Positions 7,032-13,817 of a stretch of DNA of 15,377 nucleotides are shown piece by piece; the stretch's first letter is position 1, and each line of letters starts with the position of its first letter. The stretch is from IMG/VR virus record IMGVR_UViG_2713896899_000015, one strand, 5' to 3'. This DNA is from a virus. Taxonomy: Duplodnaviria > Heunggongvirae > Uroviricota > Caudoviricetes. Below the pieces are notes generated by a model. The model worked only from the letters and a program-made list of their open reading frames with translations. It made no database searches and was not told the origin of the DNA. Made by a program: the position numbers and the translations under genes.

Positions 7032-8201
7032 CTAGCCAGCTTTCATTTCCAGAATTTTGATGGCGTTTGAATCCACCACACCACCGCCCAGATATTTATC
7101 CGTGTGGACCTTGTAGAATCCGGGTTCAGTAATGTTGTCCGGTCGGGTGCGAATCCCTGTTACATGATCAACGATGAAATAACCACGACTGAAATCGCCA
7201 ACCGCTAGCGGTGCTTTTCCTGCGCCGATGTCCGGCATGGACTCCAGGCAGTAAACAGGACGACCAAGCAACATATCCGGCGCACCTTCTTTAAGGCTGT
7301 CGCGCCAGATATAATCGCCGTTCTCATTTTTCAGCTTCTGTAGTGTCCCTGCCGTGCCCGAGTTCATCACCCAGACGGCATTTTTGCGGTATTTCGCTTT
7401 CAGCTTGTAGAGAATGTCGATCAGTTCGTCCGCTGTAATGGCGGTTCCACTTGCCGCTACCATTTTTTCAATGGTGCCAAAAGCGCGGGTTTTGTCACTG
7501 GTCGCCGCACGGGTGTAAGCCATGAATCCTTTCGGCTTGCCGTTACCGTCGCCATTAACAAAATCATCCTCTTCGGTGCTGGCGAACGTGTCGGCAATTT
7601 CGGAGGATAACCAGCCCAGAATATCCACCTCTGAAAAATCCAAGATTTCCTGCGTGGTTTTCGGGTAGGCGTAGATCGGATTCAGCTTGATGGTTACGCG
7701 TTCAATTTTCGGGGTGTTGGTTTCGCTGCGCGCGCTGCCTTCTGTGCCTCTTCCTACAGTTGCGCCGCCAGTGGAAACCAGTTTCTGAAACTCATTTGAT
7801 TTTGCGGTCTTCACGGTCGCGATCACGCGCATAACACTGTCATCCTGTAGCTGGCGCATGACTTCGCGATCAAGCTCAGGAATTACGGTATATCCGCCAT
7901 CCCTGCCGCTGTCAGTGCTGGTGGACAGTGATCGCACATCTCCGGTTACGATATAGTTACGCAATTCATCAGATGATAATTTCTGGATGCCCGTTCCTGG
8001 CTTGCTGCGTTCTTCATCAGCCACAGACTCGAGGCGGGAAATTTCTGTGTCGAGGGAATCGGCTTTTGCACGCAGTTCATCAAACTGTTTGCCCTCGTCA
8101 TCGTTCAGGCTGCGGTTTTCACTGTCGGCTTTTTCCAGCAGGGATCGCATCTGGTTTTTCAGGGCGGTTTTTTGCTGGCGGAGTTCGATTAATTTCTTCA
8201 T
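7032..8201 (-). CDS. Major capsid protein, HK97 fold, with N-terminal coiled-coil delta (scaffold) domain (389 aa)
   Basis: N-terminal ~100 aa is charged and heptad-like (delta domain). C-terminal region GTAGTLQKL...LLGRPV...GDFSRGYFIVD is typical of HK97-family capsid proteins. No separate scaffold gene. Confidence 0.9.
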   Translation of the reverse strand: MKKLIELRQQKTALKNQMRSLLEKADSENRSLNDDEGKQFDELRAKADSLDTEISRLESVADEERSKPGTGIQKLSSDELRNYIVTGDVRSLSTSTDSGRDGGYTVIPELDREVMRQLQDDSVMRVIATVKTAKSNEFQKLVSTGGATVGRGTEGSARSETNTPKIERVTIKLNPIYAYPKTTQEILDFSEVDILGWLSSEIADTFASTEEDDFVNGDGNGKPKGFMAYTRAATSDKTRAFGTIEKMVAASGTAITADELIDILYKLKAKYRKNAVWVMNSGTAGTLQKLKNENGDYIWRDSLKEGAPDMLLGRPVYCLESMPDIGAGKAPLAVGDFSRGYFIVDHVTGIRTRPDNITEPGFYKVHTDKYLGGGVVDSNAIKILEMKAG

Positions 8202-8725: not shown

Positions 8726-9246
8726 GTATCCCCCTTTGCTGCCCGGCGCTGGCGCTTGTGCTTCTCATTCAGCGCCATCAGCCGCGTTTCTGCCTCCTGC
8801 TGTTCCTGTGGTGTCACTTCCCCACATGGCTGGCCTTTCAGGTCGTAGCGTACCCCACCAGCTATTAAGGCGCGGTAATAGCGCGGAGACTGCGCATAGG
8901 ATGCCAGCGTCGCACGTAATGCCCCCGGCCCGAATGTCAGCCCCCTGGCGGCGATATCCTGCATCAGGTCGTCGAATATCCCCACCTTAAGCGGCTTCGG
9001 TGCTTCCCGGCTGAATAATTCTGGCCACAATTCAATAAGGCGGTTAACGCGTCTGCGGTTTTTGCGCTGGCGTTTGGTCATATGCCGCCACGCTGTCGCC
9101 CCTGTGGGTTTCTGCTGTGCGTTCTGATTGCCGGGTATCACTTTATGCGCCGATGTGGTTTTATCCTGCTGCTGTGCCGCCTGCGGTATTTTCTGCGGCG
9201 TGCCGTAAATGCCTTTCGGTTTTCGGTTAATGGTCATCTTTGTCAT
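8716..9246 (-). CDS. ProQ/FinO-domain RNA-binding protein (176 aa; alternative start at 9237)
   Basis: C-terminal half KPLKVGIFDDL...LRATLASYAQSPRYYRALIAGGVRYDLKGQPCGEV aligns by eye with E. coli ProQ (RPLKIGIFQDL...LRSALRLYTSSWRYL...RVDLDGNPCGEL). Basic, low-complexity N-terminus. Confidence 0.85.
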   Translation of the reverse strand: MTKMTINRKPKGIYGTPQKIPQAAQQQDKTTSAHKVIPGNQNAQQKPTGATAWRHMTKRQRKNRRRVNRLIELWPELFSREAPKPLKVGIFDDLMQDIAARGLTFGPGALRATLASYAQSPRYYRALIAGGVRYDLKGQPCGEVTPQEQQEAETRLMALNEKHKRQRRAAKGDTCQ

Positions 9247-9282
9247 GCCTTCCCCTGTAATAACTCTGTTCGCTGTTGTGAA

Positions 9283-9708
9283 TTAAAACGGTATGTTGTC
9301 CCCGTACGGATCATCGTGCTGGCCTGTCTGTTGTTTTGCCCTGTTCAGTGCGTCAGTGGCCTGGCCCTGTTGACCTTTTTTGCCGCCCGGTCGCGCCGTT
9401 CGCGCACTGATTACGCTGTCTGCAATAACCTGCCAGCCCTGCCGCGTTTCGCCGTTCTGCCCTGTCCACTGGCTTACCTGCATGTTACCCACCACGCTCA
9501 CCAGTTCGCCTTTGCGGTGTTTTGCCAGTGCGTCGGCCTGTCTGCCAAACGCCAGGACAGATAACCACATCGTCGCCGTTCCGTCATCTGCCTGGCTGCA
9601 CGGCAGGGGAACCGCCATACTCGCCATCGCCATTTGTGTCCCCTTGCTGGTGGTCTTTAACTGCGGGTCAGCCACCAGCCGCCCGTAAGCCGCTATCTGT
9701 GCTGTCAT
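9283..9708 (-). CDS. ssb: Single-stranded DNA-binding protein (SSB), 141 aa
   Basis: OB-fold pattern GRLVADPQL...W.SVLAFGRQA..LAKHRKGELVSVVG.MQVSQWTGQNGETRQ, Gly/Gln-rich linker, and C-terminal acidic tail DDPYGDNIPF (the SSB DIPF signature). Confidence 0.85.
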   Translation of the reverse strand: MTAQIAAYGRLVADPQLKTTSKGTQMAMASMAVPLPCSQADDGTATMWLSVLAFGRQADALAKHRKGELVSVVGNMQVSQWTGQNGETRQGWQVIADSVISARTARPGGKKGQQGQATDALNRAKQQTGQHDDPYGDNIPF

Positions 9709-9770
9709 GCTGTCTGTTCTCCGGTTTTAACGTTGATGGTTACGCTTGTTTACACCCTTACGGTGAAATT

Positions 9771-9919
9771 CTGCGGGTTATAATCGCGCTTTTGCGGGTT
9801 ATAACTGCCGTTTTGCGGGTTATTTTGGGTATTTTGCGGGTTACGATTTTTCTTTCATTCCTTTAATAATCAAATGGATACTGATTTATCCACAGAAATA
9901 ACCCGCATAACCCGCAAAA
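9771..9919. repeat. Iteron-type replication origin (cluster B) immediately downstream of the primase gene
   Basis: Four forward iterons tgcgggtt(at) at 9772, 9793, 9814 and 9835, exactly 21 bp apart. AT-rich core 9845-9896. Two contiguous reverse iterons ataacccgca / taacccgcaaaa at 9897-9919. Sits between primase stop (9945) and ssb start (9708), as in PICI pri-rep-ori. Confidence 0.65.
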
Positions 9920-9944
9920 TTTTCACTCTACACGCGAGAAAAAA

Positions 9945-12080
9945 TTAATCTTCTTCGCTTTCTGGCTGGAACATCAGCACGTAAAAAACATGCTGCTTCC
10001 CCCCAATTTTGCCGAGCGCCTTTTTCTTGTAACGGCGATCGTTACCCGCTTCCAGCATTCCGGCAGCACTCAACGCGCGGGCAAAGTGAGACGGATTAAA
10101 TCCCTGTGCTATCTCACCCTCAAATACATGCGGGAATGTGTAAAAACGGAACTCGTCATCTTCGTTTCTGATACTCCCCTTTCTGTATCCGGCAAGCTCT
10201 TTAATCGGTAAATCACGCTCGTCAGAGTTGGGCCAGGGAAGGTATCTGCTGAATCCGAACGACGCTAAAAAAGCCTCTGCCTGTTCAACCATCTGTTTAA
10301 ACTCCCTGTTACCCGTGCCGAACTCCTTCACCCAGGCATTAAAATTATGCTGTATGGCATCGCGGCATTCCTGCTCATCCCAGCCAGTAACATGACCTGA
10401 AAGCACAAGCGCGGCCTCCAGTATGGCAAATCGCTCCCCCACACGGTGAACCTGTTCGCCGTAGCTCTCCGGTATCAGGTTGCGCCACCGCTCACGGCAT
10501 GTCCTTACCGTGTCCTTTGCCTCCTGCTGGTGTTCTGCCAGCCATTTAACCCACTCACGACCCGCTGCCCCGTGATTTTCTGTCCAGGCATCCTTTAACG
10601 CGTCTGCGTGCGCCTTTCCGGTGCTGTATTCGTGAAATTGTGTGGCTTTTTCCATCGGCACGTTAAGCAGACGGACAAGCTGCCCCGCTTTAATTTTTAT
10701 CCCTTCCGTTTTGAGGAATGTTTCAACGTCCATTTCTCCGGTACTGATTGCCACCGTGCGCCAGTGTTTGATCTCCCTGTTGCCGCCGTCCTTCGCCCCC
10801 TGTAATTTCCCCGAACCGTTAAACAGCGTATAAGCCGACGTGGACACTTCCCGCGCGTTTCCGGCCTGACCTATTTCATCCAGGGGTAACAGCCCGTCAT
10901 TGTGCGCCTCTGCCTCGTTGGCGATGCCTAACGCTGTACCGTACCAGGTCAGCCGTTGCGCGTCCGGCTCTCCCCATAAACTGGATGCGATGTTCTGTGT
11001 GGTGGTTTTCCCTGCCGATGACTGTTCGAAAAGATGTACCCCGAAGCCGTCAGCACCCACCAGCCCGATTAATGGTGCGGATAATGATACCGCCACACCC
11101 AGCATCATGGACGGATTACCACCAGCCAACCGCGCAACGGTATCGCGCCAGCCCTCCGCCGTTCCTGCCACGGAATAACCATTAACAGCGGCAGTTTTTC
11201 CGGTAAACAGGACTGGCTTTTCGCAATCACCAATGACCGAACCGTCCGGCATGATGTACGCGCCAAAATGCCAGCCCGTTGTTGTGCTTAACTGCCATTC
11301 CTCATGGTTTCCGCTTAACTGCATCCAGTCAGCCAGGATAGCCCTGTATTTACCGTTGGTTGTCACATTCAGTCCGTGGTCTTTCAGCAGCCGCCAGCCG
11401 TCACGGTCGCCAATGCCCCCACACGGGATCGCCATTGTGATGACTTCATGGTTTGCTGGTTTTTTCCAGCGCATCACGCGGTAATGCTCTTTGCCGATTG
11501 TCCCCGTTCCCAGTAGTTCAAGCGGGGAACATAACCACGTCTCAGGCCGGATAATTTCGCCTGACTGCTTATCCACTTTTGGCGTTACCCAGAAAACACC
11601 ATCGGCACGGCTTTCAACGCGGGGCTTTAATTCATCATCACCCGGGCTTGTGGTGGTTTTTTTCTTTACCGGAAGTTTAATTACCAGATCTGCAGAAAGA
11701 TTCTGACGCTCAACGTTCAGATAGCGCCGCCAGTTCTCGCATTTCTGACCGTGCATTCCTTCAGGGTAAAAATTCGCATCCTGAATATCTGCCGCCGCCA
11801 GCTTCTGACCGATCTTTTTGGTCTCCACTAAATCCAGTTCTCCGGCCTGGTACAGCCTTACGCGTTTTTTCCCATCCGGAACAATTTTCAGCGCATCAAG
11901 TTCGGCAAGCTGATTTGGCCCAAGCCACACAGGCGGCACATCATCGCCAGATGCGGGGCCGTCCTGCTCCTGCCACTGTTTTGCATGTGCCCACGCATCA
12001 CTACCCGCGAAAATAATTACCTCTGTGTCTTTGTGTTTTATTCCGCGTGGTTGTTTTTTTACGTTCGGTGCCAGTTTCAT
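9945..12080 (-). CDS. Replication initiator, primase/helicase-type (PICI Pri-Rep / P4 alpha-like), 711 aa
   Basis: Large multidomain protein with a P-loop (SSAGKTT) in the central region. Directly upstream of the iteron origin. ATG at 12078-12080 overlaps the preceding gene stop (ATGA). Domain family not verified by search. Confidence 0.75.
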   Translation of the reverse strand: MKLAPNVKKQPRGIKHKDTEVIIFAGSDAWAHAKQWQEQDGPASGDDVPPVWLGPNQLAELDALKIVPDGKKRVRLYQAGELDLVETKKIGQKLAAADIQDANFYPEGMHGQKCENWRRYLNVERQNLSADLVIKLPVKKKTTTSPGDDELKPRVESRADGVFWVTPKVDKQSGEIIRPETWLCSPLELLGTGTIGKEHYRVMRWKKPANHEVITMAIPCGGIGDRDGWRLLKDHGLNVTTNGKYRAILADWMQLSGNHEEWQLSTTTGWHFGAYIMPDGSVIGDCEKPVLFTGKTAAVNGYSVAGTAEGWRDTVARLAGGNPSMMLGVAVSLSAPLIGLVGADGFGVHLFEQSSAGKTTTQNIASSLWGEPDAQRLTWYGTALGIANEAEAHNDGLLPLDEIGQAGNAREVSTSAYTLFNGSGKLQGAKDGGNREIKHWRTVAISTGEMDVETFLKTEGIKIKAGQLVRLLNVPMEKATQFHEYSTGKAHADALKDAWTENHGAAGREWVKWLAEHQQEAKDTVRTCRERWRNLIPESYGEQVHRVGERFAILEAALVLSGHVTGWDEQECRDAIQHNFNAWVKEFGTGNREFKQMVEQAEAFLASFGFSRYLPWPNSDERDLPIKELAGYRKGSIRNEDDEFRFYTFPHVFEGEIAQGFNPSHFARALSAAGMLEAGNDRRYKKKALGKIGGKQHVFYVLMFQPESEED

Positions 12081-12793: not shown

Positions 12794-12992
12794 AGCTACC
12801 TCGATACGCTTTCTATCGTTGGTGGTTAGAAGCCCTGCGAGTGATAACGACACTTGCGGGGCTTTGCATTTATGCACCTTGACAACCTCAAGGTGTGGCC
12901 CACTATATTCTTTAGGTGTGGCCCACGTCAAGAGTTTTATTTGTGCTTTTTCTGTGTATACTGTCCCCCACCAATCCAACAGAGGAATAGAA
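12794..12992. promoter_or_regulatory. Divergent promoter/operator region between the replication operon (-) and the RHH gene (+)
   Basis: Consensus -35 TTGACA at 12879-12884 with candidate -10 TATATT at 12904-12909 (19-bp spacer). Two perfect 13-bp direct repeats aggtgtggcccac at 12891-12903 and 12914-12926 overlap the -10 and start region. TATACT at 12957-12962. GAGG Shine-Dalgarno before the RHH ATG. Confidence 0.5.
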
Positions 12993-13172
12993 ATGGCAAC
13001 GGGTACAACAAACGCAAAATCACAAGCTCTAAAGGCTCGTGTACCACACGAAATAGTAAACGCCATGGAATCAGTGAAAGAATCAGGCGAAAGCACATCA
13101 CAATTCATCATTGCGTCAATGCAAGGCGAGATCAAACGCCGCCAGCGACGCAAAGCCAAGGAGTCAGAATAA
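12993..13172 (+). CDS. Ribbon-helix-helix (CopG/Arc/MetJ-like) DNA-binding protein, 59 aa; candidate island repressor/regulator
   Basis: ATG at 12993 with GAGGAATAGAA Shine-Dalgarno. Sequence KARVPHEIVNAMESVKESGESTSQFIIASMQGEI fits the RHH pattern (beta-strand RVP, helix, G.S.S..I, helix). Confidence 0.65.
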   Translation: MATGTTNAKSQALKARVPHEIVNAMESVKESGESTSQFIIASMQGEIKRRQRRKAKESE

Positions 13173-13229
13173 TCACTATCAGCGCCGTGGTGTGAGTAAC
13201 TACGGCGCATTGCTATGCAGGTGCTTACC

Positions 13230-13409
13230 ATGAACGATAAAGAGTTAAAAAAAACACCACCACAAACACTGAAAGGACAGCGCAAAAAGATAGCGCATGA
13301 GCATGAATCAGAAAGATTCGCCCCCTGTTCTTTTGCTCTTGAGAAATTCCTTAAGGAGCACAAGAAAAAGCTATCATTGCAAACCAGGGAACGAACCGAA
13401 TCTGACTGA
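13230..13409 (+). CDS. Hypothetical small Lys-rich protein (59 aa), co-transcribed with the RHH gene
   Basis: ATG at 13230 with AGGTG 6 nt upstream. Followed by an intrinsic terminator. A stem gcgccgt/acggcgc (13182-13208) lies between the two genes. No recognisable motif. Confidence 0.4.
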   Translation: MNDKELKKTPPQTLKGQRKKIAHEHESERFAPCSFALEKFLKEHKKKLSLQTRERTESD

Positions 13410-13473
13410 TCACATTGCCCACCAGCCAGCAAATCGCTATGATGTTCGGGCTTATGTTTAGTGTTTTCCCATT

Positions 13474-13501
13474 GGCGACCGCCCCCGGTCGCCTTTGTTT
13501 T
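13474..13501 (+). terminator. Rho-independent terminator of the RHH operon
   Basis: Stem ggcgaccg (13474-13481), loop cccc, stem cggtcgcc (13486-13493), then tttgtttt. There is no U-tract on the other strand, so it is unidirectional. Confidence 0.7.
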
Positions 13502-13520
13502 ATGTGTCATATACTCCCCT

Positions 13521-13730
13521 TTACGCTGCCTTGCCTGAATTAATGCGATCCCGGCTTTTAACCCATTCCATAACCTCGGACAGCAGCCAACCTACAGAAC
13601 GACCGCCCAGATTAAGGCGTGACGGAAATCGCCCTTTTTTCTCCAGTTCGTAGCGTGTAGTGCGACACACTCCAGTTAACTTACGACATTCATCCTCACG
13701 GATTACGCGATCTTCATTTATTTCACGCAT
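13521..13730 (-). CDS. alpA: AlpA-family (MerR/excisionase-like) transcriptional regulator, 69 aa
   Basis: LTGVCRTTRYELEKKGRFPSRLNLGGRSVGWLLSEVMEWVKSR matches the AlpA/Xis helix-turn-helix pattern (..T.Y.....G.FP....LG.R.VGW...EV.EW...R). ATG at 13728-13730 with AGGT Shine-Dalgarno. The track's longer ORF starts at a GTG (13817) with no Shine-Dalgarno. Confidence 0.8.
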   Translation of the reverse strand: MREINEDRVIREDECRKLTGVCRTTRYELEKKGRFPSRLNLGGRSVGWLLSEVMEWVKSRDRINSGKAA

Positions 13731-13817
13731 ACAAAAACCTACATAAAAATTACGTATATAAACTTTTCTCTTAGCTGTAGATATATGAGATCGGATATTA
13801 CTTAGATTCTTTTTCAC

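Follow-up and report, generated by a model that had tools for sequence, protein, structure and literature searches.

A one-way terminator and an eta-like reading frame that may carry AlpA-driven transcription past an antisense cassette for a putative repressor in a capsid-forming satellite

The DNA analyzed here, the 15,377 bp of virus record IMGVR_UViG_2713896899_000015 (the window, below), looks like a complete satellite of the capsid-forming phage-inducible chromosomal island (cf-PICI) type. In it, the minus-strand gene for the activator AlpA converges with a plus-strand cassette of two small genes, the first of which encodes a ribbon-helix-helix (RHH) protein, putatively the repressor of the island. 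The proposal made here is that a terminator working on the cassette strand only, together with a long minus-strand open reading frame (ORF) that begins just past the alpA stop codon, carries AlpA-driven transcription past the repressor cassette and into the replication genes. The evidence favors this proposal, with a good deal of room left for doubt. The long frame, called here the bridge ORF, was overlooked in the original prediction for this region, which saw in the converging genes a possible transcriptional-interference switch.

The mechanism would work as follows. The cassette (the RHH gene, a second gene called orf64, three cognate operators, and a promoter of its own) would be embedded, inverted, inside the long minus-strand ORF, and its terminator would stop cassette RNA before that RNA entered alpA and the alpA promoter (PalpA) in antisense. 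A helper phage would turn on PalpA, and AlpA would then boost its own promoter. Transcripts would continue past the alpA stop codon, where ribosomes would re-initiate at the ATG at 13510, translate the hairpin and the antisense cassette, and run in frame into a gene resembling Icd and Kil (the Icd-like gene). Translation would keep the RNA covered, and polymerase would reach the Icd-like gene, the primase gene, and the packaging operon independently of the repressor-controlled promoter. The late promoter of satellite P4 does likewise through vis and eta. Here, the terminator would be one-way because it must halt cassette RNA before alpA and yet lies in a translated frame on the other strand.

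A side effect would probably follow. Convergent transcription (collision) and duplex RNA, formed between sense and antisense strands at the start of the bridge ORF, would lower expression of the cassette and make the switch sharper. Silencing of the RHH cassette by either route, collision or antisense pairing, is plausible.

A terminator for one strand

The original prediction held that alpA and the RHH operon converge, that the operon ends in a strong plus-strand terminator at 13474-13501, and that alpA ends 20 bp away, with no U tract following the same hairpin on its own strand. All of this stands. The genes do converge (13730-13521 on the minus strand, 12993-13409 on the plus strand; Table 1), and the alpA stop codon is TAA at 13523-13521, with the T tract 19 nt away. 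On the cassette strand, a G+C-rich stem-loop of -14.5 kcal/mol is followed directly by the U-rich tail UUUGUUUU, as expected of an intrinsic terminator. With its flanks, the 32-nt hairpin segment folds at -17.1 kcal/mol (z = -5.5), a value equalled by none of 200 shuffles. The hairpin is about as stable on the minus strand (-16.0 kcal/mol), where the tail that follows it in the alpA sense is AAUGGGAA, with one U in eight. A bidirectional terminator was rejected on this ground, the alpA strand having no U tract.

A consensus scan of the convergence zone returned 13474-13501 as its sole plus-strand terminator-like site. Such sites as a class are not enriched in the region (3 found, 2.4 expected from shuffles). 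The case for this one therefore rests on its conservation in relatives.

In 48 related loci, the hairpin is kept regardless of what the cassette contains, with a 7-bp stem that is unchanged and a loop that is variable. The cassette-sense tail has six or seven T in eight (it is TTTGTTTT, or TTTGTTAT in 2 loci); the alpA-sense tail has one to three U in eight, and never more than three. EcCICFT073, a related island and the prototype PICI, carries a compensatory G-C to C-G flip in the stem (GGCCACC/GGTGGCC), again with the tail TTTGTTTT. In three loci, a change leaves a G.U pair in the cassette-sense RNA and an A.C mismatch in the alpA-sense RNA. In the window, the hairpin is 65 nt 3' of the orf64 stop codon, and on the minus strand it falls within codons 6-12 of the bridge ORF.

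A long open frame across the cassette

From its ATG, the bridge ORF passes through the hairpin, runs antisense to orf64 and then to the RHH gene, crosses the divergent promoter region, and continues in frame as the Icd-like gene. Upstream of the start of that gene, it has no stop in 239 codons. The antisense frames of the window's own genes have about 0.03 stops per codon, which predicts about seven over such a length. When the cassette proteins were kept with their codons resampled and the spacers were shuffled, the probability of finding no stop was 4e-4. Resampled codons of the two cassette genes alone gave a probability of 0.17, and shuffled intergenic parts a probability of 0.002.

The relatives give a larger sample. 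They comprise 40 distinct segments of 441-1378 nt, falling into 27 clusters at 88% identity, and 28 of the 40 segments have no stop in the bridge frame, compared with 6-38 in the other two alpA-sense frames. Among 50 loci with an AlpA at least 77% identical, every one has an ATG 8-11 nt after the alpA stop codon, and in 35 the bridge frame is open throughout and joins the Icd-like gene in frame. Most of the remaining 15 have a bridge frame that stops within a few tens of nucleotides of where the Icd-like gene starts; a second, overlapping ORF prolongs it in L008 and L009. Insertions and deletions in the "noncoding" spacers of the relatives are multiples of three. The RHH gene and orf64, compared in 45 and 38 loci, respectively, without exception occupy the antisense frame whose third codon positions match those of the bridge ORF. 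Even L051, from an alpA-variant group with a different downstream region and a different hairpin, retains the bridge ORF, and L018, whose RHH protein is Arc-like, retains a long bridge frame. In EcCICFT073 (locus L058), the bridge ORF has 428 codons (8767-10053).

What this frame encodes is another matter. Upstream of the Icd-like domain, its product differs between alleles, is rich in Cys, Ser, and Phe, and matches no family; Pfam has no family for the bridge ORF or for either cassette protein. Only near the C terminus (residues 258-301) is there a match, to NF033153 (E = 2e-18). Selection appears to act on the presence of an open, translatable frame, and not on the protein sequence.

This bears on the notion that the functional entity is the 306-aa product itself, a long Icd/Eta-type protein, with the small plus-strand ORFs being artefacts of annotation; the conserved long frame, the fact that P4 Eta, 199 aa long and ending in the same domain, is a genuine protein, and the weak Ant/Bro-N-like matches at the N terminus of the EcCICFT073 ORF speak for it, but the unconserved, Cys/Ser/Phe-rich upstream product without a family, and a plus-strand gene that gives a confident RHH model with RHH-only neighbors, has homologs across Enterobacterales, and comes with a predicted promoter, ribosome-binding site, terminator, and allele-matched operators, make it very improbable. 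As an ordinary protein gene, the 306-aa ORF was rejected for the lack of conservation of its upstream part between alleles.

AlpA and the reporters of EcCICFT073

The activator itself is readily identified. AlpA matches the Pfam family Phage_AlpA (PF05930) over residues 7-57 with E = 1.7e-16, and is 43% identical to ORF88/Vis of P4 (E = 1e-19). A search of genome contigs with AlpA had two distant loci among the matches listed. An in-frame GTG farther upstream, at 13817, accounts for the end coordinate of the original prediction. The start is most likely the ATG at 13730, giving 69 aa, because the Pfam match covers residues 7-57 and the RefSeq homologs are 69 aa long.

EcCICFT073 has the same int-alpA module as the window, the same convergent YlcI-family cassette (its protein is 98% identical to that of the window), and the 428-codon bridge ORF. 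The reporter primers of Fillol-Salom et al. (2018) were mapped onto this island (Table 1). Its homologous hairpin is at L058 9144-9163, and in pJP1290 the reporter is fused 37 nt beyond it. Passages of Fillol-Salom et al. (2018) report that pJP1290 differed significantly from pJP1291, and so was AlpA-dependent, and that it was induced by helper phage. Thus, alpA-sense transcription in EcCICFT073 passes the homologous hairpin.

The original prediction had read-through from int-alpA running antisense into the RHH operon. Given the open ORF and the pJP1290 reporter, alpA-sense read-through is very likely. An int-alpA driver is not required; passages of Fillol-Salom et al. (2018) state that the AlpA of EcCICFT073 activates PalpA, its own promoter, and not Pint. 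The read-through, in turn, looks less like incidental interference than like the arrangement of late promoter, vis, and eta in P4, a design that feeds the replication operon. It is probably functional, because the open frame is conserved, because it has a counterpart in P4 eta, and because the AlpA-dependent reporter of EcCICFT073 lies past the hairpin.

In EcCICFT073, the approximately 370 nt from alpA to the hairpin (L058 8767-9140), which RefSeq leaves unannotated, extend the bridge ORF at its N terminus. They give weak matches to anti-repressors (Ant/Bro-N-like) and hold two more hairpins. In all probability, this stretch is what Fillol-Salom et al. (2018) named "ORF3".

The cassette and its operators

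The original prediction already spoke of an RHH operon. Assignment of the first cassette gene to the RHH class agrees with the sequence signature of its 59-aa product (a KARVP strand, helix A, a G-E-S turn, and helix B) and with a confident structural model (predicted local distance difference test, pLDDT, of 88) whose structural neighbors are all RHH proteins. The predicted fold is that of Arc, MetJ, and CopG. Homologs of the gene occur across Enterobacterales. The second gene, orf64, is annotated in RefSeq relatives and is missing from some relatives.

The 199 bp between the RHH gene and the Icd-like gene contain three repeats. Two of them, AGGTGTGGCCCAC, flank the -10 and adjoin the -35 of a promoter-like site that faces the Icd-like gene. 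All three repeats change sequence in step with the RHH protein allele, across about 12 groups of alleles, and keep the same three positions in each; examples are GTCAGCCAC, GTGTTGAACAC, and GAATCGCAC. The RHH protein is a putative island repressor that would act on these operator-like repeats.

Several further observations concern this module. Its allele-specific repeats, compared across the window and L002-L055, resemble the immunity specificity types of lambdoid phages. The cassette and its operators behave as a module that can be swapped between the conserved alpA and Icd-like flanks, and in L008, L009, and L018 the YlcI-type gene is replaced by one for an Arc-like RHH protein (motif FQFRLDPDLREKMEK...). 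A hairpin at 12829-12864, in the stretch that leads from the divergent promoters to the start of the Icd-like gene, shows compensatory changes in 9 of its 14 pairs across 8 alleles. Its T-rich tail is on the plus strand, where it is terminator-like; on the minus strand, it lies within the bridge ORF, in the leader of the Icd-like gene.

Interference between two face-to-face promoters is compatible with this geometry and with the one-way terminator. PalpA is active in EcCICFT073, and the opposing cassette promoter is predicted. A transcriptional-interference switch may operate here.

Alternative explanations

A number of points weigh against the proposal that translated read-through overrides the cassette. 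Translation of the bridge ORF and its anti-termination role are predicted from the conservation of the open frame. Its Shine-Dalgarno (SD)-like element is only 3-5 nt from the ATG, a short distance. The relatives are mostly E. coli and its kin with common flanks, and the alleles are not fully independent. The minus-strand RNA from 13520 to about 12930 is G-rich rather than C-rich, with C/G below 1 until about 12900, and a strong Rho terminator for alpA is therefore not predicted between 13520 and about 12930. As a Rho substrate, this RNA would be poor, which weakens the case that translation is required for escape from Rho. A weak terminator-like hairpin at 13041-13021 on the minus strand (tail AUUUUGCG), antisense to the RHH gene, is a caveat for read-through, although ribosomes translating the bridge ORF should hide it. 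The alpA-sense RNA may partially terminate or pause at the main hairpin. The pJP1290 construct lacks the convergent cassette promoter. The Icd-like gene has a promoter-like site and a ribosome-binding site of its own, and AlpA could act in trans at that promoter instead. Finally, none of the RNA immunity elements of P4 turned up in the window, Rfam giving no C4 or isrK match at E <= 5.

These points can be assembled into a simpler account. In an ordinary convergent pair, the hairpin would end the cassette transcript only, alpA RNA would fade through pausing at the hairpin, Rho, or RNases, AlpA would act in trans at the promoter at 12931-12902, and the long ORF would be a by-product. The promoter-like site of the Icd-like gene does match the consensus at 10 of 12 positions, the weak site at 13041-13021 would suit such fading, and shadow ORFs are common; an open frame over the coding parts of the cassette alone is, as seen above, no great surprise. 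But the intergenic parts are open too, and the frame stays open in 28 of the 40 distinct alleles, which are of very different length and sequence. Likewise, an ordinary pair would not lead one to expect spacer indels in multiples of three, a start at nearly constant distance from the alpA stop codon in all 50 loci, or an AlpA-dependent reporter that is active beyond the homologous hairpin. With the P4 precedent added, this account is judged improbable.

A second alternative, given about the same low standing, puts a short plus-strand RNA at the center. An RNA of about 52 nt (roughly 13450-13501), ending at the hairpin, would be complementary to the bridge ORF from codon 4 onward and would prevent its translation or bring about cleavage by RNase III, in the manner of lambda OOP against cII or P22 sar against ant. 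The scan did pick up a promoter-like TTGCCC-17-TATGAT upstream of the hairpin, and four unrelated sequence alleles keep its -35, its 17-nt spacer, and the A2 and T6 positions of its -10. In the L051 group, too, the position of the cassette-sense terminator is one at which cassette RNA extends over the bridge ORF's SD and ATG. However, a Chi octamer falls on the conserved "-35" block and may be the cause of its conservation, and one allele has a poor -10 (CATTGT). An Rfam scan of the whole window (E <= 5) gave no match for this RNA, nor C4, isrK, or any other small RNA (sRNA) family; its two chance-level hits lay elsewhere. Further, the 3' end of the cassette mRNA would yield the same antisense RNA with no separate promoter. 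A search for trans targets of the putative sRNA found the perfect cis-antisense site and chance-level matches only. The O157 sRNAs (Esr41 and the Pas sRNAs) were rejected as a match, being from unrelated loci.

Translated read-through past the cassette is thus retained as the preferred reading. A bolder claim can be built upon it. Under this claim, E. coli-type PICIs and cf-PICIs would carry a dual-coding override switch, in which a repressor cassette lies wholly antisense within a translated eta-like ORF, wobble position on wobble position, in many swapped alleles; AlpA-driven transcription and translation would get around the repressed promoter and at the same time shut off the repressor, and this repressor would be that of Gram-negative PICIs. 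This is offered tentatively, as something that could well turn out to be wrong. Passages of Fillol-Salom et al. (2018) call the global repressor in Gram-negative PICIs unclear, and, if the claim is true, that long-sought repressor would have been identified. In any case, the proposal offers a concrete wiring: three operators served by an RHH repressor specific to its allele, a terminator that would shield alpA, and an eta-like ORF that would override the repressor. It would be a rare case of long, conserved antisense dual coding, and it bears on the immunity types of satellites and on the engineering of PICI-based delivery vehicles.

The element and its other features

The genes found in the window are those of a cf-PICI: int, alpA, primase, major capsid, protease, portal, head-tail connectors, HNH, TerS, and TerL. 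Tail and lysis genes are absent from the window, and the size, approximately 15 kb, also fits. Helper induction and packaging into the satellite's own small capsids are traits of the class to which these genes would assign it. The plus strand has two genes only, those of the cassette. The end of the Icd-like gene overlaps the start of orf75 by 8 nt, and its protein matches NF033153 (E = 1.5e-19) and phrog_1743. DNA related to the region was found in 1404 of 5426 complete E. coli genomes, with at least 80% of the 1.5-kb query covered in 145. In the RefSeq relatives inspected, gene order is annotated identically.

Table 1. Positions of features in the window and of the EcCICFT073 reporter inserts (the latter in coordinates of locus L058)
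Feature	Position	Strand	Remarks
int	15377-14139	-	
alpA	13730-13521	-	69 aa; homolog of the PICI master activator and of P4 Vis
SD-like AGGGGAG	13520-13514	-	precedes the bridge ORF
ATG of bridge ORF	13510-13508	-	10 nt past the alpA stop codon
Bridge (eta-like) ORF	13510-12590	-	306 codons
T tract TTTGTTTT	13494-13501	+	cassette strand only
Terminator hairpin	13474-13493	+	8-bp stem, 7 G-C pairs, loop CCCC: GGCGACCG-CCCC-CGGTCGCC
Promoter-like TTGCCC-17 nt-TATGAT	13415-13443	+	upstream of hairpin; speculative source of a ~52-nt RNA
orf64	13215-13409	+	second cassette gene; 64 aa (or 59 aa from ATG 13230); phrog_21027, E = 3.7e-14
RHH gene (YlcI/YnfO family)	12993-13172	+	59 aa; putative island repressor
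TATACT -10-like hexamer of the cassette promoter, with third, degenerate repeat CTGTCCCCCAC	12957-12971	+	the repeat overlaps the hexamer
Promoter-like TTGACG-18-TATAGT	TTGACG 12931-12926, TATAGT 12907-12902	-	faces the Icd-like gene; 10/12 consensus matches
Two direct repeats AGGTGTGGCCCAC	12891-12903, 12914-12926		
Icd/Kil-like gene	12793-12590	-	67 aa; nested in bridge ORF; own GAGG ribosome-binding site
orf75	start 12597	-	
Primase gene	12080-9945	-	
Genes for DUF4222 protein, SSB, major capsid, protease, portal, head-closure and adaptor proteins, HNH, TerS, TerL		-	
pJP1288 insert	L058 8128-8714		ends at alpA stop codon
pJP1289 insert	L058 8128-8540		without alpA
pJP1290 insert	L058 8128-9200		"ORF3" fusion
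pJP1291 insert	same as pJP1290		alpA deleted

Chi octamers (GCTGGTGG) are abundant, with 16 in 15.4 kb where shuffles predict 0.48. Twelve are on the coding (minus) strand (323, 737, 2199, 5428, 6662, 8855, 9672, 11057, 11119, 12163, 13419, and 14486); the others, on the plus strand, are at 987, 7917, 9646, and 12674. The one at 13419-13426 on the minus strand sits in the conserved block that separates orf64 from the terminator. Their abundance suggests protection of replicating or packaged satellite DNA from RecBCD. Directly 3' of the primase gene, an AT-rich stretch at 9810-9920 with inverted copies of GTTTTGCGGGTTAT and ATAACCCGCAAAAT, which surfaced only in a chance-level Rfam alignment, is a candidate for a replication origin.

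Comparison with known systems

The closest likeness is to satellite P4. There, a late promoter (PLL) is followed by vis (ORF88), eta with kil nested inside it, epsilon, and alpha; in the window, alpA is followed by the bridge ORF, with the Icd-like gene nested inside it, and by the primase operon. In both, a long ORF that begins beside the stop codon of the alpA homolog spans the immunity region and reaches the replication operon. The ATG of P4 eta overlaps the vis stop codon (ATGA, 8767), while that of the bridge ORF lies 10 nt past the alpA stop codon. After crossing the immunity region, P4 eta stops at 8168, which is 8 nt into epsilon, and the same 8-nt overlap joins the Icd-like gene to orf75. 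The C-terminal Icd/Kil-like domain is common to the two proteins, residues 161-208 of P4 Eta matching NF033153 with E = 1.4e-20 and also phrog_1743; outside it, the bridge ORF has no similarity to P4 Eta. By shared position and C-terminal homology, the bridge ORF and the Icd-like gene nested in it are read as the counterpart of eta with its nested kil.

This matters because of what is reported of eta in P4. Passages of PMC10111431 that summarize Forti et al. (1999) state that only the late promoter, farther upstream, gives rise to full-length Eta, that its translation is coupled to that of the alpA homolog vis, and that translation of eta prevents termination, whereby transcription from the late promoter extends into the genes beyond. 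The two systems differ in their immunity. In P4, it is a CI RNA with seqA and seqC, on the same strand, inside eta; in the window, it would be two protein genes in antisense, with their own promoter, operators, and one-way terminator.

Other phages offer partial parallels. In lambda, the CII-activated PRE transcript runs antisense through cro into cI, and OOP RNA is convergent with cII. As is proposed for the window, an activator-dependent promoter drives transcription antisense through an opposing regulator into its targets, and a short convergent unit with a strong terminator stands at the 3' end of the activator gene. In lambda, however, no conserved, translated ORF covers the stretch antisense to cro; in the window, the activator gene itself would head the read-through transcript. 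In phages 186 (pR/pL) and P2, face-to-face promoters govern the lytic and lysogenic states, and the stronger suppresses the weaker. The overlap in 186 is about 60 bp, whereas in the window it would be some 0.5-0.8 kb, with whole genes and a one-way terminator within it.

In the immI region of P1 (c4 RNA, icd, ant), downstream transcription depends on translation of icd, and the immI region of P22 has mnt, arc, and ant with the sar RNA. Their components recur in the window: an Icd-like protein, a putative RHH repressor, and a candidate RNA antisense to a site where translation would begin. The order and orientation of the genes are different, and the window has no ant gene and no detected c4-like RNA.

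Among PICIs, EcCICFT073 and EcCIEDL933 have the same int-alpA module as the window, and passages of Fillol-Salom et al. (2018) and of the Alqurainy 2022 preprint describe AlpA there as an autoactivated, helper-induced master activator. In keyword-searched passages of the PICI papers, no account was found of an antisense cassette, a one-way terminator, or a bridge ORF. What would be new here, as the sequence is read, is the union of P4-type, translation-coupled read-through with a protein-repressor cassette embedded in antisense and a terminator that works one way. This would link the induction of PICIs, both mechanistically and evolutionarily, to the vis-eta-kil system of P4.

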